A DNA stretch of 40,000 nt from Ruegeria atlantica (GTDB lineage Bacteria; Pseudomonadota; Alphaproteobacteria; Rhodobacterales; Rhodobacteraceae), in the NCBI GenBank assembly GCA_013032095.1, contig WQBJ01000024.1:1-40000 (forward strand), given 5' to 3'. Made by a program: the position numbers and the translations under genes. The stretch's first letter is position 1, and each line of letters opens with the position of its first letter. Below, piece by piece: positions 39 to 20,560 of this stretch. The notes beneath the pieces are model-generated. The model saw only the letters and a list, made by a program, of their open reading frames with translations, ran no database searches and was not told where the DNA came from.

Positions 39-113
39 TGGCTGGGGTGGTAGGATTCGAACCTACGATACACGGTACCAAAAACCGCTGCCTTACCACT
101 TGGCTACACCCCA
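39..113 (-). tRNA. tRNA-Gln (anticodon UUG)
   Basis: The reverse complement folds as a 75-nt cloverleaf. Acceptor stem is UGGGGUG/CACCCCA. Anticodon stem is GCGGU/ACCGU with loop UUUUGGU, giving anticodon UUG. T arm is GTAGG-TTCGAAT-CCTAC. The 3' GCCA is encoded. Confidence 0.9.
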
Positions 114-6875: not shown

Positions 6876-9383
6876 ATGAAAACCCAAGTCAAAGCACTGG
6901 TCGTTGGCGGCGGCGCCGTCGGGACCTCGATTGCCTATCACCTGGCCAAGGCGGGCTGGGACGATGTGATGTTGATCGAACGGGACGAGCTGACGTCCGG
7001 GTCCACCTGGCACGCAGCGGGTCTGTTGCCGCTGTTCAACATGTCCTATGCGACAACTCACATCCACAAGTACTCGGTCGACTTCTACAAGACGCTTGAG
7101 GAAGAGACCGGCCTGAACGCGGGTTTTGCCGTGGTCGGCAACCTGCGGATGGCGCAGACGCAAGAGCGTATGGATGAATACATGCTTTATGCGTCCACTG
7201 CCGAGACTTGTGACGTTGCGTATGAATGGCTGACGCCCGAGCAGATCAAGGAACGCTGGCCGCTGATCGAGACTTCGGACCTGAAGGGTGCGATCTATCA
7301 CACCGAAGACGGCTACATTAACCCGGCCGACGTGACACAGGCGATGGCCAAGGGCGCACGTCAGCGTGGTGTCGAGATCGTCCGCAAGATGCAGGCCGAC
7401 GCCTTCCACTGGAACGGCACCCATTGGGAAGTCACCTGCACCAAGATGGTCGAAAAGGGTGGTAACCTTGTTGAGAGCGACGAGCAGGTGGTGATCACTG
7501 CCGAGCATGTTGTGACCGCATCGGGCAACCACGCGCAGCGCACCGCCAAGATGCTGGGCATCAAGATGCCTGCTATCCCGGTCGAGCACACTTTCATCGT
7601 CATGGACAAAGACCCCGAGCTGGTCAAATGGCGTGAGGCCGGCAACCCTGAACACCCTGTTGTGCGTGACGCCGACAACGAATCCTATGCGCGTGAAGAA
7701 CGTGGCGGCTGGATTCTGGGTATCTACGAACATGGCGCACCCGCGCGGTTCGAACATGGTGTGCCGGACAGCTTCCGTGCCGATCTGTTCCCGTTGGATC
7801 TGGACCGGATTGCAGATCAGTACATGGCAATGGCTGAACGCGTACCGTCCTGCGCTGAATCCGGCCTGAAAGACGATTTCAACGGCCCAATCTGCTATAC
7901 CCCCGATGGCAACCCGCTGGTTGGCCCGGCTCCGGGTCTGCGCAATATGTGGTTGGCCGAAGGTTTCTCGTTTGGGATCACCGCCGCAGGCGGCACCGGC
8001 TACTATCTGGCGCAGATGATGGTCGATGGCGAAGCCGAGATCGACATGGCCTCGCTGGACCCCAAGCGTTACAGCAGCAACTGGATGACCACCGAGTTCG
8101 CGGCCCGCAAGAATGAAGAGTGCTATGAGCACGTCTACATCCTGCACCATCCCGACGAAGAGCGTGCAGCTTGCCGTCCGCTGCGGACTGTTCCGGCGTA
8201 CGATCGCCAGAAGGCGCGTGGCGCGCAGTTCGGCTGGGTCAACGGATGGGAACGTCCGAACTACTTCGGCCCGGTCGATGCGCCCGAAAACTTCGACGAG
8301 GAAAGCCGTTCCTTCCGTCGTGGTAATTGGTGGCAGTACGCAGTCGAAGAAGCAAAAGCGATCCGCGAAGGCGTTGGCCTAATCGACGCGTCGGCCTTCA
8401 CCAAGCATGTCGTCAAAGGCCCCGGTGCGACCCAGTTCCTGGATTGGTTCACTTGCAACAAGCTGCCCAAGGTCGGTCGTATCAACCTGACCTACGCGCT
8501 GACCTCGCACGGCACCACCCGCACCGAATACACCATCGTCCGCAATGGCGAGAACAACTACTACATCGTCTCCGCCGGCGCCTGGACCGAGTACGACGCC
8601 GACTATCTGCGAAAAGCGGCCGAGGACAAGATGGAGGAGTTCGGTTACATCGAGATCCAGGACGTGACCACCCAGTGGGGCGTCTTCGCCATCGCCGGAC
8701 CCAAGTCGCGTGACGTTCTGAAAGAGGTCATCAAAGACGCCGATCCGGAATCCGCGCTGTCCAACAAGCGCTTCCCATGGCTGTCGGCCCGTCAGATCGA
8801 ACTGGGTATGTGTCCGGTCAACGCGATCCGCGTGGCCTATACCGGCGAGCTGGGCTGGGAACTGCACCACCCGATCGAAATGCAGAACTACCTGTTCGAC
8901 CTGCTGGAAAAAGCGGGTGAGAAGCACGGTATGAAGCTGGTCGGTGCCCGCGCTCAGAACTGGCTGCGTCAGGAGAAATCCTATCGCGCCTTCGGCACCG
9001 AGTTGGGCCGCGACGCAACCCCGCTGGAAGCCGACCTGCCGCGCTTTGTCGACCTGTCGAAAGACTTCTACGGCAAGGCCAAGCTGGAAGAGACCGGTGT
9101 GCGCGTGAAATGCTGCACCCTGCTGATCGACGGACCGGACGATGCCGATCCGTGGGGCCGCGAGGCGCTGTACACGCCGGAAGGTGAGCGCGTCGGTCGT
9201 CTGACCTCGGGCGGCTACTCGGTGGCCTTCGAAAAATCCATCGGCATGGGTTACGTGAAGCCCGAGCTGGCGGTCGAAGGCACCAAGCTGCAAGTCAAAA
9301 TTCAGGACAAGCTGTGGGATGCGGTTGTCACCTGCGACAGCCCCTACGATCCGAAGAATGAAGTTATCCGCAAGGACGGCTAA
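6876..9383 (+). CDS. Dimethylglycine/sarcosine dehydrogenase-family enzyme (FAD oxidoreductase fused to GcvT-like aminomethyltransferase domain)
   Basis: N-terminal dinucleotide fold VVGGGAVGTSIAYHLAKAG. C-terminal folate-binding GcvT-like region (YTGELGWELHHP). The 835-aa length is typical of the DMGDH/SARDH family. GGGGAG RBS precedes the ATG. Confidence 0.85.
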   Translation: MKTQVKALVVGGGAVGTSIAYHLAKAGWDDVMLIERDELTSGSTWHAAGLLPLFNMSYATTHIHKYSVDFYKTLEEETGLNAGFAVVGNLRMAQTQERMDEYMLYASTAETCDVAYEWLTPEQIKERWPLIETSDLKGAIYHTEDGYINPADVTQAMAKGARQRGVEIVRKMQADAFHWNGTHWEVTCTKMVEKGGNLVESDEQVVITAEHVVTASGNHAQRTAKMLGIKMPAIPVEHTFIVMDKDPELVKWREAGNPEHPVVRDADNESYAREERGGWILGIYEHGAPARFEHGVPDSFRADLFPLDLDRIADQYMAMAERVPSCAESGLKDDFNGPICYTPDGNPLVGPAPGLRNMWLAEGFSFGITAAGGTGYYLAQMMVDGEAEIDMASLDPKRYSSNWMTTEFAARKNEECYEHVYILHHPDEERAACRPLRTVPAYDRQKARGAQFGWVNGWERPNYFGPVDAPENFDEESRSFRRGNWWQYAVEEAKAIREGVGLIDASAFTKHVVKGPGATQFLDWFTCNKLPKVGRINLTYALTSHGTTRTEYTIVRNGENNYYIVSAGAWTEYDADYLRKAAEDKMEEFGYIEIQDVTTQWGVFAIAGPKSRDVLKEVIKDADPESALSNKRFPWLSARQIELGMCPVNAIRVAYTGELGWELHHPIEMQNYLFDLLEKAGEKHGMKLVGARAQNWLRQEKSYRAFGTELGRDATPLEADLPRFVDLSKDFYGKAKLEETGVRVKCCTLLIDGPDDADPWGREALYTPEGERVGRLTSGGYSVAFEKSIGMGYVKPELAVEGTKLQVKIQDKLWDAVVTCDSPYDPKNEVIRKDG

Positions 9384-9393
9384 TTTGAAAAGG

Positions 9394-9411
9394 CCCCAGC
9401 GAAAGCCGGGG
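9394..9411. repeat. Left copy of target-site duplication (CCCCAGCGAAAGCCGGGG)
   Basis: The identical 18-mer occurs in direct orientation at 20543..20560, immediately outside the two TIRs. The C4/G4 ends are complementary to each other, so the true duplicated length is ambiguous at 14-18 bp. Confidence 0.85.
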
Positions 9412-9516
9412 GGTATAGAGATATCCGCCAGAAAATAACTACTCACCTCAAAGGAGCCCGCACAGAGATGTGTGGGCTTTCTTTCTTGATCCAACCGTTG
9501 ATCGTGATCGACTGCT
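9412..9516. repeat. Left terminal inverted repeat (105 bp)
   Basis: Base-by-base comparison shows 9412..9516 equals the reverse complement of 20438..20542 with no mismatches (GGTATAGAGATATCCGCCAG...GATCGTGATCGACTGCT). Confidence 0.95.
9455..9487 (+). terminator. Inward-facing intrinsic terminator-like hairpin inside the left TIR
   Basis: AGCCCGCACA-GAGA-TGTGTGGGCT forms a 10-bp stem with one G-U pair and a GNRA loop. It is followed by TTCTTTCTT. Confidence 0.6.
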
Positions 9517-9543
9517 ATGAGCCCATACTGAACTCATCAGAGC

Positions 9544-10182
9544 TCAAATATCTGCAAGGTGGTCAAACTTTCGAATGAACGCTTCCTGCACGCTCTTATC
9601 TTGCGTTAAGAGCAATCCATACGACTTCAGATAGGCATTGATCGCGGTTTGTAGTGCATCTCGCCGAACAATTTTTTTCTTTGCGTCAACGGCAATGTTA
9701 CCTGAAGCCCATATCCTCCAACCATTTTTCGTGCGTGCCTCATGCAACAAAGCACATCGAACACTTTGATAGAATTCTCGCGATTCTAATTTGTCTGAAA
9801 AACATTCGCTGAACGGCTCCTCCCGAACGAGAAACTCACAAAATAGGGCGTTGCTACTTGAGTACTCATACTGGCCGAGTTTCTCGCCCTTTTTCAGGAA
9901 TTTGTAGCTTTTTCCGGCCTTCAGAGCTGCAAGGAACTCGATTAGAGCGCATTGAACAGAGACAATCGTGAATCCTTCACCTTGGACATCGCCATGGTCT
10001 TGGAGCACCTTTATCGGAGTTAGATAACGGTGACTGAGTCGAGCCATCAAAAAATCTTCAAAAGTCTTAGCCCAAAGGATTTCTTTTTCATTTTCATTTG
10101 CGTTTAGCTCGATCTTTCGCGCCTGCCAGTCTTTCACCGTGCGATGCCCGGCAATCTGGTCGCTTGCGTCGTCATTTGCCAT
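9544..10182 (-). CDS. Hypothetical 212-aa casposon cargo protein (possible HEPN-like R-x4-H motif)
   Basis: ATG at 10182 lies 69 bp downstream of the cas1 stop on the same strand, with GGAAG upstream. Sequence looks helical. R142-CALL-H147 is encoded at 9742..9759. No confident family assignment. Confidence 0.6.
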   Translation of the reverse strand: MANDDASDQIAGHRTVKDWQARKIELNANENEKEILWAKTFEDFLMARLSHRYLTPIKVLQDHGDVQGEGFTIVSVQCALIEFLAALKAGKSYKFLKKGEKLGQYEYSSSNALFCEFLVREEPFSECFSDKLESREFYQSVRCALLHEARTKNGWRIWASGNIAVDAKKKIVRRDALQTAINAYLKSYGLLLTQDKSVQEAFIRKFDHLADI

Positions 10183-10251
10183 CGTTTTTTACTTCCGTTC
10201 CAGCGCATTAACTTTCCCAAGTTGCTCTTAATAGATAGTTCACTTCAAGCA

Positions 10252-11421
10252 TCAAATCGGCAGGCCAAGCATTGTCGGCTGTGTCCGCATTCCAACCATA
10301 TGCCCGGCATAGGGGCGAGCGGAGTTTCGCAATTCAAACTCCACCTCATACACTACCTTCCTCGCCAAGTTTGGGCTTAGGCGACAAACGCCATCATCCT
10401 GCAAAATGAAATCCGCCCCCGTGAATATTTCGTCCTGGACCAGTTTCAACACAGCCCGGTCTACGATGGGGCGTAGTGGCTCCATCATGTCGAAGACGAA
10501 GGAGTGACGCCTTGGGTCTACACGGTTATGCAGAATCCCTTGTGACACGTCGTAACCATCGGCAATCACGCCGATCCTGACATGGGCTTCAAGCATGCGA
10601 TACGCGTAATTCAGCATCGCATTGACTGGATGAGTGGCATTATAGTTTTTTGGCTTGCCGGAACTTAACGTGGATCTGGAGAAGAAGCGCTTCCATTCGT
10701 GTTGGATTGGGTATCGTCCTTCAGCTCTCCAGTGGATTTTCAATGCTCTCCAGGAAAAGAAGTAGCCAGCTGCGACGCGTCCTTCCTCGGAGAGCAGGCC
10801 CCCGATACTCGACAGCACACCCTTTTGCAGCAATTCGATAACCGATTGAGTTGTATTGATCGCTTTGGTTTTCGAAGGGGAATCTGGTAGCAATTCAAGC
10901 AAGTTATGCAAAGTCGCTTCCGCCTTTGCTGAAATTAGAGGAATAGCGAAATCTAACCTTTTGCTTTCCTCGCTTTGGGTTTCGAATTGCCACATCAGCT
11001 TTTCCGGCAATACCGAGGACTTGCCGTTGCCGAGAGCAATGATAGGTTTTCCATTCCAATTCAATCGGATCAATTCGACGTTCTGCGTTGAAAGCCAATC
11101 CAATGCGTCCAGGGTTATATTGCCTGACCCGTCGATCAGGAAAATGCGCTTTGGTAAACCCAGATCTCCTTTGAAAAAGCGGTATTTGCGTATTTCAGAA
11201 GGGTAATGCGTATTTCCATCCTTTACCGCCAATGTGCCCTTTTCGACCGCAATCGAAATGCCGTGCCCCGACAAGATAAGGGGCGTGGCTTGTCTTTCCC
11301 GCCGCTTCCGCTTCGGGGTGTGTTGACGGATGGATTGAAGCCAATACTCTGATCTTACGGCCCATTCATCGTGGGTTTCTTCTAAATTTTCCAAATCGTA
11401 CATTATTCCAATCCAATTCAA
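10252..11421 (-). CDS. cas1: Cas1-family integrase (casposase)
   Basis: Cas1 hallmarks are present. N-terminal beta region LILSGHGISIAVEKGTLAVKDG and IFLIDGSGNITLDALDWLSTQNVELIRLNWNGKPI. Catalytic E in LSEEGRVAAGYFF (10783..10788). HPVNAMLNYAYRMLE. Catalytic H in GILHNRV (10528..10530). D/E in FDMMEPLRPIVD (10480..10491). An alternative start is the ATG at 11403. Confidence 0.9.
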   Translation of the reverse strand: MNWIGIMYDLENLEETHDEWAVRSEYWLQSIRQHTPKRKRRERQATPLILSGHGISIAVEKGTLAVKDGNTHYPSEIRKYRFFKGDLGLPKRIFLIDGSGNITLDALDWLSTQNVELIRLNWNGKPIIALGNGKSSVLPEKLMWQFETQSEESKRLDFAIPLISAKAEATLHNLLELLPDSPSKTKAINTTQSVIELLQKGVLSSIGGLLSEEGRVAAGYFFSWRALKIHWRAEGRYPIQHEWKRFFSRSTLSSGKPKNYNATHPVNAMLNYAYRMLEAHVRIGVIADGYDVSQGILHNRVDPRRHSFVFDMMEPLRPIVDRAVLKLVQDEIFTGADFILQDDGVCRLSPNLARKVVYEVEFELRNSARPYAGHMVGMRTQPTMLGLPI

Positions 11422-11647
11422 TGTTTTTGTTATTAATCATATCATTAGATTGAAATGACGAGCCTGTTTTCTTCGCCAAATAGGCGATTTTTTCCCGAGT
11501 TCTCCAAGAAATCCCAGATGGTTGACGGCGGCTAGATGGGTGCCAAAGTATCCTAACCCCCTGACTGATTCTTTTTGAGTCAACCCATTGCGAGAGTTTT
11601 GCGGGGGCTTTTCAGGTTCGTGAACATTCTCTTTCCTAAAGGGCGAC

Positions 11648-11669
11648 AGACCGGCCATCGCGCCGGTCT
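11648..11669. promoter_or_regulatory. Perfect 8-6-8 palindrome upstream of the HTH gene (operator candidate)
   Basis: AGACCGGC-CATCGC-GCCGGTCT lies 23 nt upstream of the ATG at 11692, within the divergent cas1 / HTH-HNH-polB intergenic region. Confidence 0.3.
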
Positions 11670-11691
11670 CAAACGTTTTAGGAGAGGCGCG

Positions 11692-12264
11692 ATGGCGAAA
11701 AAGCGCGACTACAAGGCAGAATACCAAAGGCGGATCGCCAATGGCCTGAAACGAGGACTATCCCGTTCCCAGGCACGTGGGCATCCATCCAAGGCGGAAG
11801 CGAGCGCATCCGGCATACAGGTTCCAAAGCCCAATGGTCAGCTTGAAGCTGCATTGCGAGAATTGAGACGCGGTGCCTCCCAGAAGGCTGCCGCGCAATC
11901 AGCCGGTGTCAGCCAAGAGCGTTTTCGCCGTTTTATCTACGGCCACGGCCTAGCCAGGCGAGAGGGACGATCCTGGGTTCTGACCGATGACCGGATGCGC
12001 CGCGTCACCACGATCCACCGGGGCGAAACCAAGACGGTGTGCGTCAATCGCTACGCAGAGGCGCAAACGGCGGGAGAGTATTCAGATGCTGTCGGTGTGT
12101 TTCTTCGTACCAACGATCCGTCCGTTTTGATCCCGTTTGTTGGGGGTGGTCTGACAGACCACAAAGGCCGCTTCCTCGAATTCGAGACGGACCCAAACGC
12201 TCTCTATCGTCACGCGTCCCAGGACACGCCCGCCTTTCACGAAATCTATCAAATCGTCAGCTAA
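11692..12264 (+). CDS. Helix-turn-helix DNA-binding protein (casposon-encoded)
   Basis: Track ORF was trimmed to the ATG at 11692, preceded by TAGGAGAGG. HTH-like segment GASQKAAAQSAGVSQERFRRFI. Basic N-terminus MAKKRDYKAEYQRRIANGLKRGLSRSQARG. Confidence 0.7.
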   Translation: MAKKRDYKAEYQRRIANGLKRGLSRSQARGHPSKAEASASGIQVPKPNGQLEAALRELRRGASQKAAAQSAGVSQERFRRFIYGHGLARREGRSWVLTDDRMRRVTTIHRGETKTVCVNRYAEAQTAGEYSDAVGVFLRTNDPSVLIPFVGGGLTDHKGRFLEFETDPNALYRHASQDTPAFHEIYQIVS

Positions 12265-12276
12265 AGGAGACACCTC

Positions 12277-12654
12277 ATGACAAAGACATACCAAGACCAG
12301 GAAACCCGCCGAGAAAAGGACTACCGCCGACTTCGGACGCGAAATCCAATCTGCGTTGGATGCGGCTATTCTGATCATCCAACTGCGCTGGAACTGGCCC
12401 ACATCATTCCGCGCAAGTTTGATGATGATGCCGTGGTGCTTTGCAGCAACTGCCACCGCGAACAGAGCGACGCCGAAAAGGATTTTTCCTACAGCCCGAC
12501 GACGGACAATCCGCAGATGGAAACCATCGGGCGGTATCTGTTGTCCGTCGCGGATATCCTGAAACTCGTTGCATCCAAATTCGAAGAGTTCGGGCATTGG
12601 CTGCTGGAACAGGCCGAACACGTTCTTCCGTATTGCCCGGAGGAAACGGCATGA
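12277..12654 (+). CDS. HNH endonuclease
   Basis: The pattern CVGCGYSDHPTALELAHIIPRKFDDDAVVLCSNCH matches the HNH/zinc-finger layout C-x2-C...H...N/C-x2-H. AAGGAG RBS is present. The stop overlaps the polB start as ATGA. Confidence 0.8.
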   Translation: MTKTYQDQETRREKDYRRLRTRNPICVGCGYSDHPTALELAHIIPRKFDDDAVVLCSNCHREQSDAEKDFSYSPTTDNPQMETIGRYLLSVADILKLVASKFEEFGHWLLEQAEHVLPYCPEETA

Positions 12655-15401
12655 GCCTACCATCGCCGTCTGAAGTCGCCGTGCGGGCCTACACCGAAAA
12701 ACCAAATGCCCGCCCCCTCGCGGCAAAGTCCTTTGCGGCAGGCGAGGATCACCCGTCACCGTGGACGCTGATCTTTGATTGCGAAACCACCATTGATGCC
12801 GCGCAAACCCTGCGCGTTGGCGTCTACCAAATGCGCAAGTCGGGTTCGTTGAAAGAAGAGGGCCTATTCTTCGATCCCGAACACCTCGGCTGCGAGGATC
12901 GCTCCGCGATTGAGGACTACGCGCAGTCGCACAAATTGAAGGTTCTCTCAGCTGATGCGTTTCGTAGAGAGGTTTTTCTCAAGATCGCCTACCTGAGACG
13001 GGGGGTGGTTGTGGGGTTCAATCTTCCCTTCGACCTGTCACGGATCGCGATCAAACACGGGGCTGCGCGCGGCCCAATGCGGGGCGGGTTCACCTTTCAT
13101 CTCAGCCGCTACAAGAGCGATCCGCAGATCCGCGTCAAGCACCTGAGCGCTCGCGCCGCGCTAATCGACTTTGCACAGCCTGCGAAGCAAGAAACACCGC
13201 GCGGTATGCGTAAGAAAGGGATGAAAGTTCCGCATCATCGCGGGTATTTTGTCGACGTCAAAACTTTGGCGGCGTCTCTGACCAGCCGAAGCTTCTCATT
13301 GGGCGGCCTGTGCAAGTATCTCGGAACGCAATCGCAAAAACTTGCAACCGAAGAGCATGGCGGGCCAATCACAGCCGACTATCTCGACTACGCGCGCGCA
13401 GATGTTCAGGCCACCTGGGAATGTTTTGCCGAACTTGACCGGAGATACAGCGAGCATGGCCTCGATACACCGACCCATCGCATTCTGAGCGAAGCCAGCA
13501 TTGGCAAAGCCTATCTCAAGCAGATGGGGATCCGACCCTTCCTGGGAAATTTGCCAGATTTTCCCCGAGAGATATTTGGCCAGATCACCTGTGCCTACTA
13601 CGGCGGGCGTGCCGAAGTTCGCATTCGGCGAGAGGCAACCCAAGTTCTCTATTGTGATTTCAAGTCCATGTATCCTACCGTCAGCGCCTTGATGGGGCTG
13701 TGGTCGTTTGTGGTCGCGCAAGACCTGAGCATCCATGACACAACGCGGGAAACCCAAGTATTCCTCGACAAGGTATCCTTGCAGGACATGCAGTCGAAAG
13801 AGACCTGGAAGCGTCTGCGCACCCTAGTCCGCATACAAACGAACCATGATCTGTTGCCTGTGCGGGCCAGGTATGACGGCAAGGTCAACACCATCGGCCT
13901 GAACTACGTCTCAAATGAGCAACCGCTCTGGTACACATTGGCCGATTGCATCGCATCAAAACTGTTGTCTGGGAAAACGCCGATCATCGAAGAGGCGATG
14001 ACCTTCGAACCGGGCGAGGTTCAGGACGGTTTCGAACCGATGAACCTGTTTGGAAATCCCAACTATCGCGTCGACCCTTCCTGTGACGACGTGTTCACCC
14101 GCTTCATTGATCTGCGCGATGCGGCACGGGCAAGAAAAGACCCTGTGCAGCAGGCCATCAAGATCGTCGCCAACTCAACGAGCTATGGCATCTTCATCGA
14201 AGTTAACCGGGACAATGCGCCCAAGCCGGAACCTTTGAGTGTGTATGGCCCGAACGGGCATCTGTTGAAAACCGACGCAACCGCTGTCGAAGAACCGGGT
14301 CGCTACTATCACCCGCTCTTGGGAACGCTGATCACCGGAGCCGCCCGCTTGATGCTGGCCTTGTCGGAACGCGTGGCAGCGGATCAATGGTTAAACTGGG
14401 TGTTCTGCGATACCGACAGCCTCGCTATGGCAAAGCCCGCGCATATGGAACAAACCGAGTTCCTGGCAAAGGGGCAAAGCGTGATCGACTGGTTCAATAG
14501 TCTCAACCCTTATCGAAAGCCGGGCTCCATTCTGGAAATGGAAGATGCAAATCATGATCCAAACACAGGACAGTCGGAGCCGCTCTATTGCCTGGCCATC
14601 TCGGCAAAGCGCTATGCGCTCTACAATCTCTCAAACGACGCCAAACCCGTATTGCGCAAAGCATCCGCGCACGGTCTTGGGCATTGGATGGCTCCCTACA
14701 GCGAATATGACGCACCAGGATGTGTGCCAAACCCCGCATTGTTGCCATCTGAGATAGGCGTCGACCGTTGGCAGCATGATTTGTGGATCAAGATAATCGA
14801 AGCCGTTCTACGCGGCACGCCCGATCAGGTCAGCCTGGACTATCATCCCGCCTTGCAAAATCCCTGCGTCAGTCGCTACGGCGCAACCAGCCCTCAACTG
14901 TTGAAGTGGGTTGAGATCTGGAACCAGGATCAGCCGTACCAAGACCAAATCAAGCCGTTTGGGTTTCTGAGCGCGTTCACCGCAAAGTCCGGGTGTTTAA
15001 TCGAACCAAGGCAAGATGTGATCGTGGGGACGCCTGGTCGTGGCAGGCCTACCAAGTCCAAGACGCCAAAGCCAATTGCCCCGTTTGAACGGGATAGCCG
15101 ATTGGCGGTTTCCCAGGCCTTCGACCGGATTGCCGGAGATCAAGTGCACCCTTCAGAACTCAAGACCTATGCCGAGGCCCTGGCACAATTCCATCTCAGC
15201 ACCGAAGACAAATTCGAGAACGGCGATTTTATCCACGTCGGCGAAACTCGAAGACGCCATGTCCAGGTAGAGAATGTCGGGCTTATCGGCAAAGAAGCCA
15301 ACAAGGTTGGATCATGCGGTGAGGCTGATCCCATCGTGTCGGCCCAAGCGAGCTTCGGAGCGCTTCAAACCATCAATCACCAAACGGAGGTCAGCCAATG
15401 A
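12651..15401 (+). CDS. polB: Family-B DNA polymerase
   Basis: Exo I: LIFDCETT (12777..12785). Exo II: GFNLPFDLSRI. Exo III: YLDYARADVQATW. Pol motif A: LYCDFKSMYPTV (D codon at 13656). Motif B: KIVANSTSYGIF. Motif C: VFCDTDSLAM (DTDS at 14410..14421). Track ORF was trimmed to the ATG at 12651 after GGAGGAAAC. Confidence 0.9.
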   Translation: MSLPSPSEVAVRAYTEKPNARPLAAKSFAAGEDHPSPWTLIFDCETTIDAAQTLRVGVYQMRKSGSLKEEGLFFDPEHLGCEDRSAIEDYAQSHKLKVLSADAFRREVFLKIAYLRRGVVVGFNLPFDLSRIAIKHGAARGPMRGGFTFHLSRYKSDPQIRVKHLSARAALIDFAQPAKQETPRGMRKKGMKVPHHRGYFVDVKTLAASLTSRSFSLGGLCKYLGTQSQKLATEEHGGPITADYLDYARADVQATWECFAELDRRYSEHGLDTPTHRILSEASIGKAYLKQMGIRPFLGNLPDFPREIFGQITCAYYGGRAEVRIRREATQVLYCDFKSMYPTVSALMGLWSFVVAQDLSIHDTTRETQVFLDKVSLQDMQSKETWKRLRTLVRIQTNHDLLPVRARYDGKVNTIGLNYVSNEQPLWYTLADCIASKLLSGKTPIIEEAMTFEPGEVQDGFEPMNLFGNPNYRVDPSCDDVFTRFIDLRDAARARKDPVQQAIKIVANSTSYGIFIEVNRDNAPKPEPLSVYGPNGHLLKTDATAVEEPGRYYHPLLGTLITGAARLMLALSERVAADQWLNWVFCDTDSLAMAKPAHMEQTEFLAKGQSVIDWFNSLNPYRKPGSILEMEDANHDPNTGQSEPLYCLAISAKRYALYNLSNDAKPVLRKASAHGLGHWMAPYSEYDAPGCVPNPALLPSEIGVDRWQHDLWIKIIEAVLRGTPDQVSLDYHPALQNPCVSRYGATSPQLLKWVEIWNQDQPYQDQIKPFGFLSAFTAKSGCLIEPRQDVIVGTPGRGRPTKSKTPKPIAPFERDSRLAVSQAFDRIAGDQVHPSELKTYAEALAQFHLSTEDKFENGDFIHVGETRRRHVQVENVGLIGKEANKVGSCGEADPIVSAQASFGALQTINHQTEVSQ

Positions 15402-15739
15402 GCTGGGAGCACATCGAATACCCCGCATTTTGCCGAGATTGCGGGCACAAGGGCAGCCGCATCTATTCGGAAAACGACTGGTTCCGGACCAATGTCACTT
15501 GGATTGGATTTGAATTTGCCGAAGTTCGAACAAAGAAAGTCCACTCAGGGACAGTTTCCTGCCCCGAATGCGGCTCTAGCTCAATACATGTAGAAAAAGA
15601 GAAAGGAGCATACGTCAAGCGTGATCAATTTTGGGATGATAGGACAACCGGAGTAATGGGAGAGGACGAATTGTGTAAATTCACTACCAGCGAGCCCATC
15701 GGCAGCAATGCGCAGAAAGCGACCTTTGCAAAATTATAG
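15398..15739 (+). CDS. Zinc-ribbon protein (hypothetical)
   Basis: Two C-x2-C pairs (CRDCGHKG ... CPECGSSS). The ATG overlaps the polB stop as ATGA, suggesting translational coupling. Confidence 0.6.
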   Translation: MSWEHIEYPAFCRDCGHKGSRIYSENDWFRTNVTWIGFEFAEVRTKKVHSGTVSCPECGSSSIHVEKEKGAYVKRDQFWDDRTTGVMGEDELCKFTTSEPIGSNAQKATFAKL

Positions 15740-16112
15740 GGACGGCCCACAGCCGTCGTCAGCTGGTTCCGGGAACGCTTAATCGCAGTTTTCCCGGAGC
15801 GGACGTTGGTCAAATTTGCAGCATCCTTCGAGTCGAGACGGCAGCACCGCGCAAAAAAGTAACCAATTGGCGGGCTGATTAGCCCAAAGTGGTCGTTTTT
15901 TCACGTCGCAATCTAAGGGCAACTCATCGTGGCAAACAGTGGGTGTGCAGCGGAAGGGAAAATCGGCGAAAGAACCTTCGCTCTGTTGGAGGGGCTTCAA
16001 GGGAAGCTTATTAAACAAGATTCTCTTCGATATGTTTTTTCTGAAACGCGCCGAGGATGAAGCCCTAAAATTTTGATATTTATAGAATTAACGACTTTCA
16101 AACCTTGGCGGC

Positions 16113-16141
16113 TTGAAAAGTGTATTGCGTAACGCTACAGT
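16113..16141 (+). promoter_or_regulatory. Sigma-70-like promoter candidate for the large cargo gene
   Basis: TTGAAA, a 17-nt spacer, then TACAGT. It lies about 27 nt upstream of the ATG at 16168 in an AT-rich 430-bp intergenic region. Confidence 0.35.
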
Positions 16142-16167
16142 ATACGAAAGAATTTGTTGAGGTCTTC

Positions 16168-19100
16168 ATGTCGAATCGCACAATCAGCGCTAACCACCCC
16201 GGTTACTTCATAAAAAACAACGTTATTCCAGAAGGAGTGAGCGTCACCGCCGCTGCAAAAACACTCGGCGTAGGGAGGCCAGCGCTGTCCAATCTTCTAA
16301 ATGGAAAGTCATCCCTTTCCCCCGAGATGGCAGCTAAAATTGAAAAGGCGTTTGGTCACAGCGCAAAAGAGTTGCTCGATCTACAAAGCGCTTATGAAGC
16401 CGGCTCTAACGTCTGTAGTGCCGCCACAACAACCTCGTTTCCGTATGTACCTCCCTTCTTGGGGGCTACCGCAAATCAGATATTCGATTGGTCGCAGCGT
16501 ATATCTTCGCGTACCCGCTTTGCAGTCTTTCTAAGAACGCTTGTTCACAGTACTTGCGCTTCTACGTCTTTGGTAGACTTTCCCGGAAATGATGACGGCG
16601 AGCGACCAGGTTGGGATGGAGAGGTTGAATGCGAAACGGGTAACCCGTGGGTTCCAGTAGGGAAATCCGGCTGGGAATTCGGCACAAATGCAAACTACGC
16701 ATCCAAAGCAAACAAGGACTACAAGAAGAGTGTGAAGGCTCTAGAGGCTGAAAAGCGCAAGGGGATGACGTTCGTCTTCGTCACGCCTCATCGCTGGAAA
16801 AACAAGTCGAAATGGGAGGCGGAGAAACGTGCTGAGGGACATTGGAAGGATGTCCGTGTGTATGACGTTAGCGATCTAGAGCAATGGCTGGAGCAGTCTT
16901 TACCAGCTCAAACATGGTTCGCAAACGAAACCGGCGTCGAGTACGAAGGCACACTGTCTCTAGACCGCTGCTGGGTAAAGTGGAACGCTGACTGCAAGCC
17001 ATCCTTTACGGAGGAAATTTTCGAAGAGGCGATTTCGACAGTTGGAAAAAAGCTCTCGGACCGACTTCGCAATGACGGGGATCGAGTGGCTCGTTTGGCT
17101 GCGGACTCTGTCGAGGAAGGACTTGCTTTCTTGCATGCTCTCTTTCACCACAGTGAAGGAAAATTGGCACAACAACGCGACCGGGTCATTGTCTTCACTA
17201 AGCCCGGACCTCTCGCAAAGCTGGCTGCAAAGACCAGTCGCTTCATACCGATCATAACAAACAGAGAAGTTGAAAAGGAACTATCCGAATCAGGGCATAG
17301 ACTAGGTGGCATCGTAATCACGCCACGCACGACCGAGGGTGTCGAGAAGGATATTGTTTTGGAGCCCTTGAGTGGAGAGGCATTCCGTGTGGGTCTCGAA
17401 AAAATGGGACTTGGTCGTGATGACATATCCCGACTGGGCAACGAGTCAGGTCGTTCGCTCACGGTGCTTAGAAGACGGCTTTCAACTTCTGACGCGATAC
17501 AAAGGCCCGAGTGGAGTAACCGCAGTGATTTGGCAAAGTTCCTGTTTCCAATTCTGCTTGCTGGCGCTTGGAACTCTAGAAACAAAGCTGACTGCATTAT
17601 CCTGTGCGAGCTTGCAGGAATTGATAACTACCGTGATCTTGAAAACCAATTCGCAAAGCTGCTGAACCTCAATAGTCCGCCAGTCTGGGCTGTTGGAGGC
17701 TTCCGAGGGGTAGTCTCAAAGATTGATGCGGTCTATGCAATCCGTAGCTGGATAAGCGAAGATGAGCTCAAGCGTTTTTTCTCTGTCGCAGATTTGGTTT
17801 TGTCGGAGCGCGATCCATCCTTAGACCTTCCCGAAGAAGATCGTTGGGCAGCGCATATTTATGATAAGAAAAGAGATATTAGCGGCTCCCTTCGTGACGG
17901 GATCGCCGACAGCCTCGCATTGTTGTCCATGCATGGGAAAGAATTGTTCTTCTCACGAACAGGTTTAAACCCAGAACATCTATGTTCTAACCTTGTTAAA
18001 GGGTTGCTAGAACCGCTTACTGCGGAGCTTCTTGAATCGCAGGCTTCAGAACTACCAATCTATGCAGAGGCCGCGCCGGATACATTCCTCACTATTTTTG
18101 AGAAAGACCTTAAGACGGGCGAGCCCGTTGTGTTTTCTCTCATCCGCCCGGCAGGTACAGGTCTCTTTGAGCGAACCCCTCGTACTGGTTTGCTCTGGGC
18201 GCTCGAAAACCTTGCTTGGTCACCTATCCACTTACCGCGCGTTCTTGAAATTCTGGCGAGGCTCAGTCAGATCAAGTTGGACGACAACTGGGTAAATAAG
18301 CCAGCGGAAACGCTCCGCTCAATCTTCCGAAGTTGGTTTCCTCAGACTGGTGCGCCGCTAAAACAGCGGATAGCACTGTTGAAGAGGATGATTGCAGATC
18401 ATCCCGATGTAGCTTGGAAAATTTGCAAGGCAGAGCTTGATCCGTCTCCGGGTTTTGCTAGCCCCAATCATAAGCCGAGATGGAGAGACGATGCCTTTGG
18501 GCATGGTGAGGGGGTCACCAGAGGAGAACGTAGTGAATTTGTGGTTTTCTGCATCGAAAGCGCGCTCAACTGGCCAAGATACGACGTCGAGATTCTATGT
18601 GACCTGATCGGTTTTGAAGACTTTGTGACTGACGATCATAATAAACAGGTGTGGCGCGTTGTTAATGCATGGGCGCAAACAGCAAGTGATGTAGATAGAG
18701 CTACTCTTAGAGAGAAAATTCGAACAACAACACGCCGCACGATGCGCCGTAGGAAGCGCAAACTTAGAGATGCAGAGAGCGATACACGACGAACTAAATT
18801 AGCAAAGGATACTTACGATGCGCTCGAACCACGCGATTTAATCCAGAAGTTTTCATGGCTGTTCAAGAAGCACTGGGTGCCGGAAGCGTGGGACGAGATA
18901 GAAGATGATACCGACTATCGGAAAAGAGACGAGCGCATACAATCCCTGAGGGATGATGCGGCTCAACAGGTTTTCCAAGTGAAAGGTTTCCAAGGGTTCG
19001 TTGAACTTGCTTTTCTTGGGGAGGCCTCATGGATTGTGGGTAGGTGTGCCGGGCGTGTGTTAAACGACATTAGTGCACGAAGTGACTTTGTTCATTTTGT

Positions 19101-20244
19101 GATTTCGGAGCACTCCCTTGCCAGCACTTTCGCTGCCCGACAACTAGTTGGAGGCATGTTCGCTGAAATCGGAGCAGAGAAAGCGGTCAATACCTTGGCT
19201 ACGCTTCGCGGCAGTCTGGACCAAACAAAACTACTGGACCTGTACTGCCTTGCACCGTTCGTGATGGCGGTGTGGTTAGACTTGGGGCATTTCGACTTAG
19301 ATTTTCAGAATGACTATTGGAAGTCTGTTAGTCCGACTTGGATGCATCATTCCGAAGAGGATTTGAGGTTTGCTACTGGTAAGCTTATTGACCAGGGACG
19401 CCCAGCTGCAGCCTTTCAATTAATACATCTGGACTTAAAGTCGATTGCTTCAGTTCAGCTTTATCAGGTGCTTTTGGACATGACGACCTCAAATGAGGAG
19501 CGTGGTGCAATCCAATCGATGGAAGCATATTCCATTAAGGAAGCTATTTCGCTTTTGACAGAACGCGGGGCTCAAAGCCAAAGCGAACTGGCCCTTTTGG
19601 AGTTTCGTTACCTCGCGCTTTACCGCGATGACAAAGAAGAGGCTTTGAACTTAGAGAAAGAGATATCACAGAACCCAAGCATTTTTTGTGATGCCATTGA
19701 ATTGGCCTATAAGCGTGACGACGGCTCATCTGACAAGGACGATATCGAGGACCTAGAGACAGTCGCGACGAACGCATATCGAATGCTTGACGTGCTGAAA
19801 CGGATACCTGGCAGTCGCGACGATGGTATCGTTGACGCCGACCATCTTGAAGAATGGATAGGTGAGGCTCGTAGATTGTGTGAAAAGAAAGGGCGCAGCG
19901 ATATTGCTGACTACAGAATTGGTGAGCTCCTAAGTAATGCTAAAGTAGGCGCAGACGAAGTGTGGCCATGTGAAGGCGTCAGGGCAGTTATGGACCGTTT
20001 GATGACAGACAGCATCTCACAAGGCTTTTACATCGGCACAAAGAACTCTCGCGGTGTCCATTTCCGAGGTGAAGGAGGAGCTGAAGAGAGGAGCCTCGCC
20101 AAGAAGTATTCAGATTGGGCATCGTCCATGGAGTATGAATATCCGAACACTGCTACAGCACTCCGCACCATCTCAGACAGCTACGTGAGCGAAGCTGAGT
20201 ACGAAGATAACGAAGCAGCGATCCGCAAGCGTATGCGTTATTGA
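16168..20244 (+). CDS. Large (1358 aa) cargo protein: N-terminal HigA/VapI-type HTH fused to uncharacterised domains
   Basis: Track ORF was trimmed to the ATG at 16168 (GAGG upstream). N-terminus HPGYFIKNNVIPEGVSVTAAAKTLGVGRPALSNLLNGKSSLSPEMAAKIEKAFGHSAKELLDLQ is a typical HigA-family Xre HTH. The remaining roughly 1260 aa are mostly helical with no canonical Walker A. Confidence 0.85.
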   Translation: MSNRTISANHPGYFIKNNVIPEGVSVTAAAKTLGVGRPALSNLLNGKSSLSPEMAAKIEKAFGHSAKELLDLQSAYEAGSNVCSAATTTSFPYVPPFLGATANQIFDWSQRISSRTRFAVFLRTLVHSTCASTSLVDFPGNDDGERPGWDGEVECETGNPWVPVGKSGWEFGTNANYASKANKDYKKSVKALEAEKRKGMTFVFVTPHRWKNKSKWEAEKRAEGHWKDVRVYDVSDLEQWLEQSLPAQTWFANETGVEYEGTLSLDRCWVKWNADCKPSFTEEIFEEAISTVGKKLSDRLRNDGDRVARLAADSVEEGLAFLHALFHHSEGKLAQQRDRVIVFTKPGPLAKLAAKTSRFIPIITNREVEKELSESGHRLGGIVITPRTTEGVEKDIVLEPLSGEAFRVGLEKMGLGRDDISRLGNESGRSLTVLRRRLSTSDAIQRPEWSNRSDLAKFLFPILLAGAWNSRNKADCIILCELAGIDNYRDLENQFAKLLNLNSPPVWAVGGFRGVVSKIDAVYAIRSWISEDELKRFFSVADLVLSERDPSLDLPEEDRWAAHIYDKKRDISGSLRDGIADSLALLSMHGKELFFSRTGLNPEHLCSNLVKGLLEPLTAELLESQASELPIYAEAAPDTFLTIFEKDLKTGEPVVFSLIRPAGTGLFERTPRTGLLWALENLAWSPIHLPRVLEILARLSQIKLDDNWVNKPAETLRSIFRSWFPQTGAPLKQRIALLKRMIADHPDVAWKICKAELDPSPGFASPNHKPRWRDDAFGHGEGVTRGERSEFVVFCIESALNWPRYDVEILCDLIGFEDFVTDDHNKQVWRVVNAWAQTASDVDRATLREKIRTTTRRTMRRRKRKLRDAESDTRRTKLAKDTYDALEPRDLIQKFSWLFKKHWVPEAWDEIEDDTDYRKRDERIQSLRDDAAQQVFQVKGFQGFVELAFLGEASWIVGRCAGRVLNDISARSDFVHFVISEHSLASTFAARQLVGGMFAEIGAEKAVNTLATLRGSLDQTKLLDLYCLAPFVMAVWLDLGHFDLDFQNDYWKSVSPTWMHHSEEDLRFATGKLIDQGRPAAAFQLIHLDLKSIASVQLYQVLLDMTTSNEERGAIQSMEAYSIKEAISLLTERGAQSQSELALLEFRYLALYRDDKEEALNLEKEISQNPSIFCDAIELAYKRDDGSSDKDDIEDLETVATNAYRMLDVLKRIPGSRDDGIVDADHLEEWIGEARRLCEKKGRSDIADYRIGELLSNAKVGADEVWPCEGVRAVMDRLMTDSISQGFYIGTKNSRGVHFRGEGGAEERSLAKKYSDWASSMEYEYPNTATALRTISDSYVSEAEYEDNEAAIRKRMRY

Positions 20245-20437
20245 TGGTTGCTGGACTGAAGTAGTCTTAGCGGAACTGGAACCTAGGCAATGCTCAACGG
20301 ATCGTGAGCGTGTTCCACCTTCGACAAGGTGACCAAACTCCACGTCTGCTTTGGGTTGGGATCAGATAGGGTCGACCAATCTACACAGTGTCGCAAGGTA
20401 CAAATCAAAAAAAGCTAAAATCAAAAAAGTGGCTTCG

Positions 20438-20542
20438 AGCAGTCGATCACGATCAACGGTTGGATCAAGAAAGAAAGCCCACACATCTCTGTGCGGGCTC
20501 CTTTGAGGTGAGTAGTTATTTTCTGGCGGATATCTCTATACC
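20438..20542. repeat. Right terminal inverted repeat (105 bp)
   Basis: Exact reverse complement of 9412..9516. Confidence 0.95.
20467..20499 (-). terminator. Inward-facing intrinsic terminator-like hairpin inside the right TIR
   Basis: Mirror image of 9455..9487, so the same hairpin plus U-rich tract reads on the minus strand. Confidence 0.6.
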
Positions 20543-20560
20543 CCCCAGCGAAAGCCGGGG
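20543..20560. repeat. Right copy of target-site duplication (CCCCAGCGAAAGCCGGGG)
   Basis: Identical to and in the same orientation as 9394..9411. It is followed by CCTTTTTCTTTCC, so this copy still reads as a plus-strand terminator. Confidence 0.85.

Follow-up and report, generated by a model that had tools for sequence, protein, structure and literature searches.

A family-3 casposon of Ruegeria atlantica with a predicted accessory subunit of its casposase and a hairpin-centred target site

Introduction

[quoted passage not shown] (2014) as a feature of family-2 casposases only; the Cas1 proteins of HenMar-C1 and StrAlb-C1 had no additional domains, and family-1 Cas1s were also without an HTH (PMC4046053). 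In the M. mazei casposase, the HTH domain begins at residue 342 (342–405) and is essential, and E162, H232 and E247 were named as the catalytic residues (PMC6977970). A family-1 casposase integrates site-specifically in vitro without an HTH (PMC8464041).

An HNH gene and a conserved HTH gene are common to three of the four family-3 elements and to family 2, and it was proposed that the two proteins might act with Cas1 in target recognition (PMC4046053). Since 2014, ideas on the role of the conserved HTH protein have been guesses. All published family-3 elements lie between genes (PMC4779613), and HenMar-C1 is given in print with a duplication of 1 bp and a palindromic terminal inverted repeat (TIR) of 37 bp. 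No bench study of any family-3 casposase was found in the literature searched.

The window analysed here is a stretch of 40,000 nucleotides from Ruegeria atlantica (GenBank assembly GCA_013032095.1, contig WQBJ01000024.1, positions 1 to 40,000 of the forward strand), and all positions refer to it unless another locus is named. A preliminary description of the window had pointed to a Cas1 open reading frame (ORF) and a divergently encoded HTH protein.

Results

The element and its surroundings

The cas1 gene was located inside a complete casposon of ~11 kb (9410-20544) with perfect 107-bp TIRs and a 14-bp target-site duplication. The features are listed in the order of their positions.

6876..9383, +, host FAD-dependent oxidoreductase/GcvT-family gene (dimethylglycine dehydrogenase-like)
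9396..9409, +, target-site duplication, left 14-bp copy; loop and inner stem of a host terminator-like hairpin
9410..9516, +, left TIR (107 bp), same sequence as the right TIR
9453..9480 (mirror in the right TIR), +, terminator-like hairpin within the TIR, 12-bp stem and T-rich tail
9544..10182, -, cargo ORF of 212 aa, no family
10252..11403, -, casposase (Cas1 family by Pfam), 383 aa, likely start; catalytic E207/H292/E308, no C-terminal HTH
11281..11403, -, N-terminal extension of Cas1, residues 1–41; based on homologue conservation and an AF2 helix
11692..12264, +, 190-aa partner with N-terminal basic motif, winged HTH and C-terminal domain
12277..12654, +, HNH endonuclease, 125 aa (PF01844, E 2e-4, over the cut-off)
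12651..15401, +, family-B DNA polymerase (PolB), 916 aa with Exo and Pol motifs (PF03175, E 2e-6)
15398..15739, +, zinc-ribbon protein, 113 aa, variable cargo (weak Pfam zinc-ribbon matches)
16168..20244, +, cargo protein, 1358 aa, N-terminal HigA-type HTH, remainder without assignment
20438..20544, -, right TIR, 107 bp
20545..20558, +, target-site duplication, right 14-bp copy

The 212-aa ORF and cas1 are on the minus strand, and the genes for the partner, HNH, PolB, the zinc-ribbon protein and the 1358-aa protein run divergently from them. A family-3 casposon would be expected to have an RNA-primed PolB that nests within family 2; the only Pfam match of the PolB in the window was the partial one to PF03175. 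The match of the 1358-aa protein in PADLOC was weak (PD-Lambda-4_A, E 2e-4). The cargo of related elements included Lamassu-like, SIR2-HerA and HNH genes, so elements of this family may carry defence genes.

The TIR boundary given by a repeat finder (9388/20566) was rejected, as the outer 22 bases belong to the palindromic target. The TIR was taken to start with its four G's because the non-palindromic targets of two relatives (L010 and L117) fix this point; at hairpins flanked by C/G, the boundary may slide by 1–2 bases on both sides. The hairpin within the TIR was also present in three related TIRs (G227, L017 and L067). It may shield the casposon from its surroundings and stand in for the host terminator split by the insertion.

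The casposon is intergenic and was inserted 12 bases past the stop codon at 9383, in a hairpin behind the GcvT-family gene. A tRNA-Gln(TTG) gene of the window (39-113, minus strand) is not the integration target. The GC content was 51% in the casposon and 58% in the flanks. The casposon cas1 was absent from 69 other genomes of the genus and present in two of 400 genomes sampled from the host's family. This rarity fits a recent arrival, and the sequence is consistent with an intact, recently arrived casposon. Searches of viral contigs, plasmids and phages for homologues gave no match, and no RNA record or run containing the casposon was listed.

No cas2 gene or CRISPR array was found in the window or on contig C157. 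Two ordinary CRISPR-cas2 loci are present on other contigs of the host genome, with arrays at C215:12053-14209 and C239:2793-5719 (~21 and 38 repeats). An orphan or CRISPR-associated cas1 was excluded by the TIR-bounded element and the lack of an adjoining cas2 or array. Hence, the "solo Cas1" of the preliminary description is accurate as to cas2 and CRISPR in the window, but the term is misleading for a gene within a TIR-bounded element that also encodes PolB and HNH.

Several relatives are no longer whole. In soil Alphaproteobacteria (L004, L006, L007 and L010-L014), several 3'-end fragments of cas1 and solo TIR tips represent decayed casposon remnants. In the casposon of L051, the partner and PolB genes were broken by several insertion sequences and cas1 was whole.

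The casposase

The cas1 ORF (10252..11421, minus strand) is open throughout and encodes 389 aa if read from the TTG at 11421. The likely start is the ATG at 11403, which gives 383 aa; this form (P0001) is the version called in the protein collection. Pfam assigned the ORF to Cas1 (E 2e-33), and the motifs EEG, GILHNRV, FDMMEP and KRKRRER were all found.

The best solved relative, both by sequence and by fold, was the M. mazei casposase (6OPM; 27–28% identity). In the alignment, E207, H292 and E308 (P0001 numbering) corresponded to the M. mazei residues E162, H232 and E247 (construct offset 17). All three were invariant across 119 homologues; the homologue searches, for Cas1 as well as for the partner, covered proteins of near-length. 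The active site is thus intact, as the preliminary description had read it, and its count of about 75 residues between the catalytic acidic residues and the end of the ORF agrees with the 75 residues after E308.

The basic N-terminal extension was also confirmed. It comprises 41 residues from the ATG at 11403 and includes KRKRRER. AlphaFold built a helix at 13–28, which carries W14 (98%) and the invariant R17 and W21, and the basic PKRKRRER stretch then follows. The number of residues before the first strand is 41 in the window Cas1 and has a median of 44 in the homologues. As at least 39 residues precede the first strand in 119 of 119 homologues and the motifs are conserved, the extension is not the product of a mis-called start. 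R32, R34 and R35 were conserved at 91–99% among the 119 homologues.

The AF2 model of Cas1 ends with a helix (344–361) and a tail (365–383) at pLDDT<50. Its residues 39–381 aligned to residues 1–320 only of 6OPM (Z 28.6, rmsd 3.2, 312 aligned), and the HTH of the M. mazei protein lies beyond these. A Pfam HTH match was found in none of the 119 homologues, and none had a tail of at least 60 residues after R341 (median 19, maximum 48). A cryptic C-terminal HTH was therefore ruled out by the model, the 6OPM alignment, the Pfam scan of the homologues and the tail lengths, and the view that this Cas1 has no such domain was upheld.

What the preliminary description made of this was only partly borne out. 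The need of the archaeal casposase for its HTH applies to family 2 (M. mazei, PMC6977970) and not to family 1 (PMC8464041). A different integration architecture, in the sense of something new, was not found: HenMar-C1, a published family-3 member, has the same one. The missing HTH is an already known trait of family-3 casposons, and since it is ordinary for the window casposase, the HTH-less architecture by itself is not new.

Family assignment

The features by which a casposon is recognized were all present: a Cas1 with intact catalytic residues that is not linked to cas2 or an array, a family-B polymerase gene in the element (12651-15401) and TIRs with a flanking target-site duplication. Pfam scans of the seven large ORFs of the element, two of which have no assignment, gave no other transposase or recombinase. 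A CRISPR adaptation module would have cas2 and a repeat array adjoining cas1, and neither was there.

The ORF is almost certainly a family-3 casposase of the HenMar-C1/HypCY54 kind. HNH and conserved HTH genes lie beside PolB, the host is bacterial, the site is intergenic and the nearest relatives are in Alphaproteobacteria. The Cas1 was 44% identical to that of HenMar-C1, which has the same extension, compared with 27–28% to 6OPM. In a tree without an archaeal outgroup, the window Cas1 and that of L053 fell into one supported clade (95/88). The core order, with cas1 divergent from HTH-HNH-PolB, was common to the relatives and HenMar-C1. Family 2 is defined by an HTH fused to the C-terminus of Cas1, which the window Cas1 does not have. 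Family 1, with its protein-primed PolB, thaumarchaeal host and aEF-2 target, does not agree with the bacterial host and the hairpin target.

Target sites

When the casposon was removed from the sequence, a terminator-like hairpin re-formed directly downstream of the host GcvT-family gene, and the 14-bp duplication lay on its axis. An exact empty allele was not seen, though in several congeners this gene is followed by a similar hairpin.

The pattern was general among the relatives. In 15 of 21 complete relatives (71%), 9 or more of the 12 pairs about the centre of the duplication were symmetric. In the null, which was drawn from the host genome alone and compared with elements that are kin, random sites reached this value in 0.3% of cases, sites behind stop codons in 1.1% and non-coding motif-matched sites in 3–4%; survivor bias towards harmless intergenic sites is controlled only partly in this comparison. 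With the motif pairs left out, 8 of 11 passed, compared with 0.8% in the null. The target hairpins were terminators and REP-like repeats unrelated in sequence. Sister casposases at different loci used different hairpins (L053/L154/L072; G227/L067; L148/L151), so the cases are largely separate insertions.

The sites could also be explained by a preference for a short symmetric sequence (C-runs at the two cuts, resembling the CCCC-3' end of the TIR) together with purifying selection for intergenic insertions. Most hairpin-type duplications do have C as their first and G as their last base and lie in arms rich in C/G, and the intergenic position of all published family-3 elements (PMC4779613) would follow as well. 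But among motif-matched sites, hairpins made up only 3–4% of the non-coding ones and ~1% of all, against 71% of casposon targets. Moreover, the inner stem pairs differed between elements yet stayed paired, and duplications of 13 to 17 bp were still centred or nearly so. We therefore consider this explanation unlikely and prefer one in which the symmetry or structure of the hairpin would be read.

HenMar-C1 fits hairpin-centred targeting. Its DNA (AQXT01000002.1, L150:337-350 and 16569-16582) shows a direct repeat of 14 bp, whose centre coincides with that of a REP-like palindrome, and a shorter TIR. The published 1-bp duplication is a mis-parse in which the duplicated target was counted into the TIR. 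HenMar-C1 targets a hairpin though its partner lacks the N-terminal motif, which counts against the accessory-subunit model discussed below. Hairpin-centred targeting was not found in the literature searched, which says only "intergenic" for family 3.

One supported clade (L103, L113, L130, L117, L111 and L115) had recurring targets that were weakly palindromic or non-palindromic. The basic motifs of Cas1 and the N-termini of the partner are degenerate in this clade, which makes it a natural comparison group for targeting. In L103 (98 and 13512), the 15 bases outside the TIRs were inverted rather than direct repeats, which may reflect an inversion or an assembly artefact.

Two further loci had more than one TIR at a site. 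In L136 (2135-2201, minus strand), a second TIR starts on the axis of the hairpin that lies within another TIR, meaning that an element was inserted into a casposon end; the contig has one end only. In L016 (14099-14143; G175), the order was TIR-duplication-TIR, with the second TIR directly after the right target copy and a cas1 fragment behind it, which represents a tandem reuse of the palindromic site.

The partner protein

The 190-aa partner has a basic N-terminal motif (3–34), a winged HTH (44–102) and a C-terminal domain (103–178) without a named match. It belongs to a large, unnamed family (877 matches; 820 representatives at 50% identity, E<=1e-10) and is homologous to the 163-aa neighbour of HenMar-C1 (probability 99.5, E 6e-23). 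In 45 of the 47 loci with enough flank, its gene was located upstream of cas1 at a distance of at most 4 kb. A role as a terminal protein like Streptomyces Tpg had no support in Pfam, PDB, viral and atlas searches, and the C-terminal domain was folded within the whole protein only.

The complex of Cas1 and the partner was predicted with two Cas1 copies, one partner and our own alignments. It passed, with a score of 0.61 compared with 0.01 for the best of three controls (0.00–0.01). Of 80 solved complexes, 58 attained the mark, as did 2 of 110 mismatched pairs; these numbers apply only roughly here because of our own alignments and the two Cas1 copies. In the tool's own test, 7 of 44 blind-picked neighbours passed. 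The contacts agreed between runs by at least 78%, and the pLDDT of the partner was at least 74. As no PDB match to the partner was found at E<=0.001, the prediction is unlikely to be the recall of a solved complex.

The predicted interface on Cas1 comprised residues 12–18 (in the extension helix), 47–48, 64–71, 91–94 and 330–344. It lies on the N-terminal domain and the extension, away from E207/H292/E308. On the partner, residues 135–143 and 168–177 were involved, and the winged HTH was outside the interface. The E. faecalis Cas2 pairs with strand 1 of Cas1 (PMC6977970); the likeness of this contact site to the predicted interface is a lead only.

The C-terminal domain of the partner, which is the predicted docking domain, was kept in 20 of 20 complete elements retaining the core genes. 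The N-terminal motif is missing from HenMar-C1, and in one clade it is either degenerate or missing. Interface residues were slightly more conserved than the rest, which was not significant (P 0.08 and 0.24). Covariation between the two proteins (55 pairs) was weak, with a mean Z of 0.46 at predicted contacts and the top pairs elsewhere. Neither comparison strengthened the case for the complex. Based on the prediction, the partner probably binds Cas1. That it is needed for efficient or targeted integration is slightly less likely than not.

A different explanation is that the HTH-less casposase works alone, its basic extension contacts DNA in cis and the partner is a regulator of divergent promoters or a replication factor, with the predicted complex being false. 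The family-1 casposase is sufficient in vitro without an HTH (PMC8464041), which counts against an accessory subunit. The extension is found in all 119 homologues with its three arginines highly conserved, and a divergent winged-HTH gene is a classic regulator layout. Nevertheless, the complex passed with reproducible contacts and controls near zero, and the predicted docking domain is the most persistent part of the partner. We regard a casposase that works alone as fairly unlikely.

The partner could also bind and restrain or switch the casposase, as an inhibitor, an excision/directionality factor or a link to HNH/PolB in replication, with no DNA recognition for integration. The distance of the predicted interface from the catalytic residues would allow this, and the partner has also been reported from family 2, whose Cas1 needs no other protein to integrate in vitro. 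On the other side, the free winged HTH suits the delivery of DNA and there was no sign of inhibition, which makes such a restraint or switch quite improbable.

The preliminary description had suggested that the separate HTH protein supplies DNA recognition in trans. The winged HTH, the position beside cas1 in 45 of 47 loci and the predicted binding speak for this idea, which dates to PMC4046053. A replacement in trans is not established because family 2, in which Cas1 carries an HTH itself, likewise has a separate HTH protein; the job of this protein may therefore be unrelated to the missing tail, which counts against the accessory-subunit model too. Still, "accessory subunit" fits the partner better than "replacement in trans". 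A predicted accessory subunit of a casposase was not found in the casposon literature searched.

Discussion

An intact, recent family-3 casposon with the partner as accessory subunit and insertion at the hairpin axis is, as a whole, the explanation that we favour with reasonable, not high, confidence. By analogy with family-1 and family-2 casposases, a Cas1 tetramer would join the 3' ends of the TIRs to two sites that are staggered by ~14 bp, and filling of the gaps would then yield the target duplication. In the predicted complex, the C-terminal domain of the partner (135–143 and 168–177) would grip the N-terminal beta-domain of Cas1 and the lineage-specific extension helix. The free winged HTH could add DNA binding, to the TIR or the target flank, to an integrase without its own HTH. 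The target pattern suggests that insertion occurs at the axis of GC-rich hairpins, where symmetry or structure and the C-run/G-run arms may be read rather than one fixed sequence.

Extended to the family-3 casposons of Alphaproteobacteria, the model is tentative. These would have a two-protein integrase in which the N-terminal helix of an HTH-less Cas1 recruits a winged-HTH subunit, and the complex would insert at, and duplicate, the axis of any GC-rich hairpin. If true, this would be a present-day counterpart of the proposed step in which a single casposase became Cas1 with a partner, and it would lead directly to palindromic repeats of the CRISPR-like kind.

The predicted accessory subunit and the observed hairpin-centred targeting go beyond what is known, and both are directly testable. 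The window casposon is an intact mesophilic candidate with a model that can be tested at residue level, as interface residues are named on both proteins. Should the partner prove to be a true subunit, integration by a casposase would not always be the work of a single protein, with consequences for ideas on how Cas1 acquired Cas2. If hairpin-centred insertion is real, it supports an origin of CRISPR repeats from casposase target sites, the published "palindromic TIR" of HenMar-C1 is the duplicated target, and the integrase is one that places 10–15 kb of cargo in terminators, not genes.

Comparison with known systems

CRISPR Cas1-Cas2 resembles the window locus in the Cas1 fold, in a small partner on the N-terminal domain of Cas1 and in a duplicated target that is often palindromic. 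In contrast, the window locus has no cas2, leader or array, its partner has no Cas2 match and its cargo is a whole transposon.

The family-1 casposase of Ca. Nitrosopumilus koreensis AR1 (PMC8464041) is likewise without an HTH domain and makes a 13-bp duplication. It differs in being archaeal, with a protein-primed PolB and a fixed target in the aEF-2 gene, and in being active alone in vitro. The family-2 casposases of M. mazei (6OPM, PMC6977970) and Aciduliprofundum boonei (PMC5137440) share the catalytic triad and a duplication of ~14 bp, and 6OPM is the best structural match (Z 28.6). Unlike the window Cas1, they have an essential C-terminal HTH (342–405), ~3 residues before strand 1 and fixed sequence targets, e.g. 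tRNA gene ends.

The element at L053 is probably HypCY54-C1 (Hyphomonas sp. CY54-11-8; Krupovic et al. 2016, PMC4779613), judging from the Hyphomonas record AWFD01, ParB/RepB and a serine resolvase. Its duplication is 17 bp, its TIR is 25 bp and its cargo comprises Lamassu-like genes, ParB and the resolvase. Its Cas1 is 52% identical to that of the window, and it has the same core genes, a near-identical TIR tip and a hairpin-centred duplication.

[quoted passage not shown] It has a Cas1 of 44% identity with the same N-terminal extension and no C-terminal domain, the same order of cas1 and HTH-HNH-PolB, a homologous partner, a G-run at the TIR tip and a 14-bp duplication centred on a palindrome.
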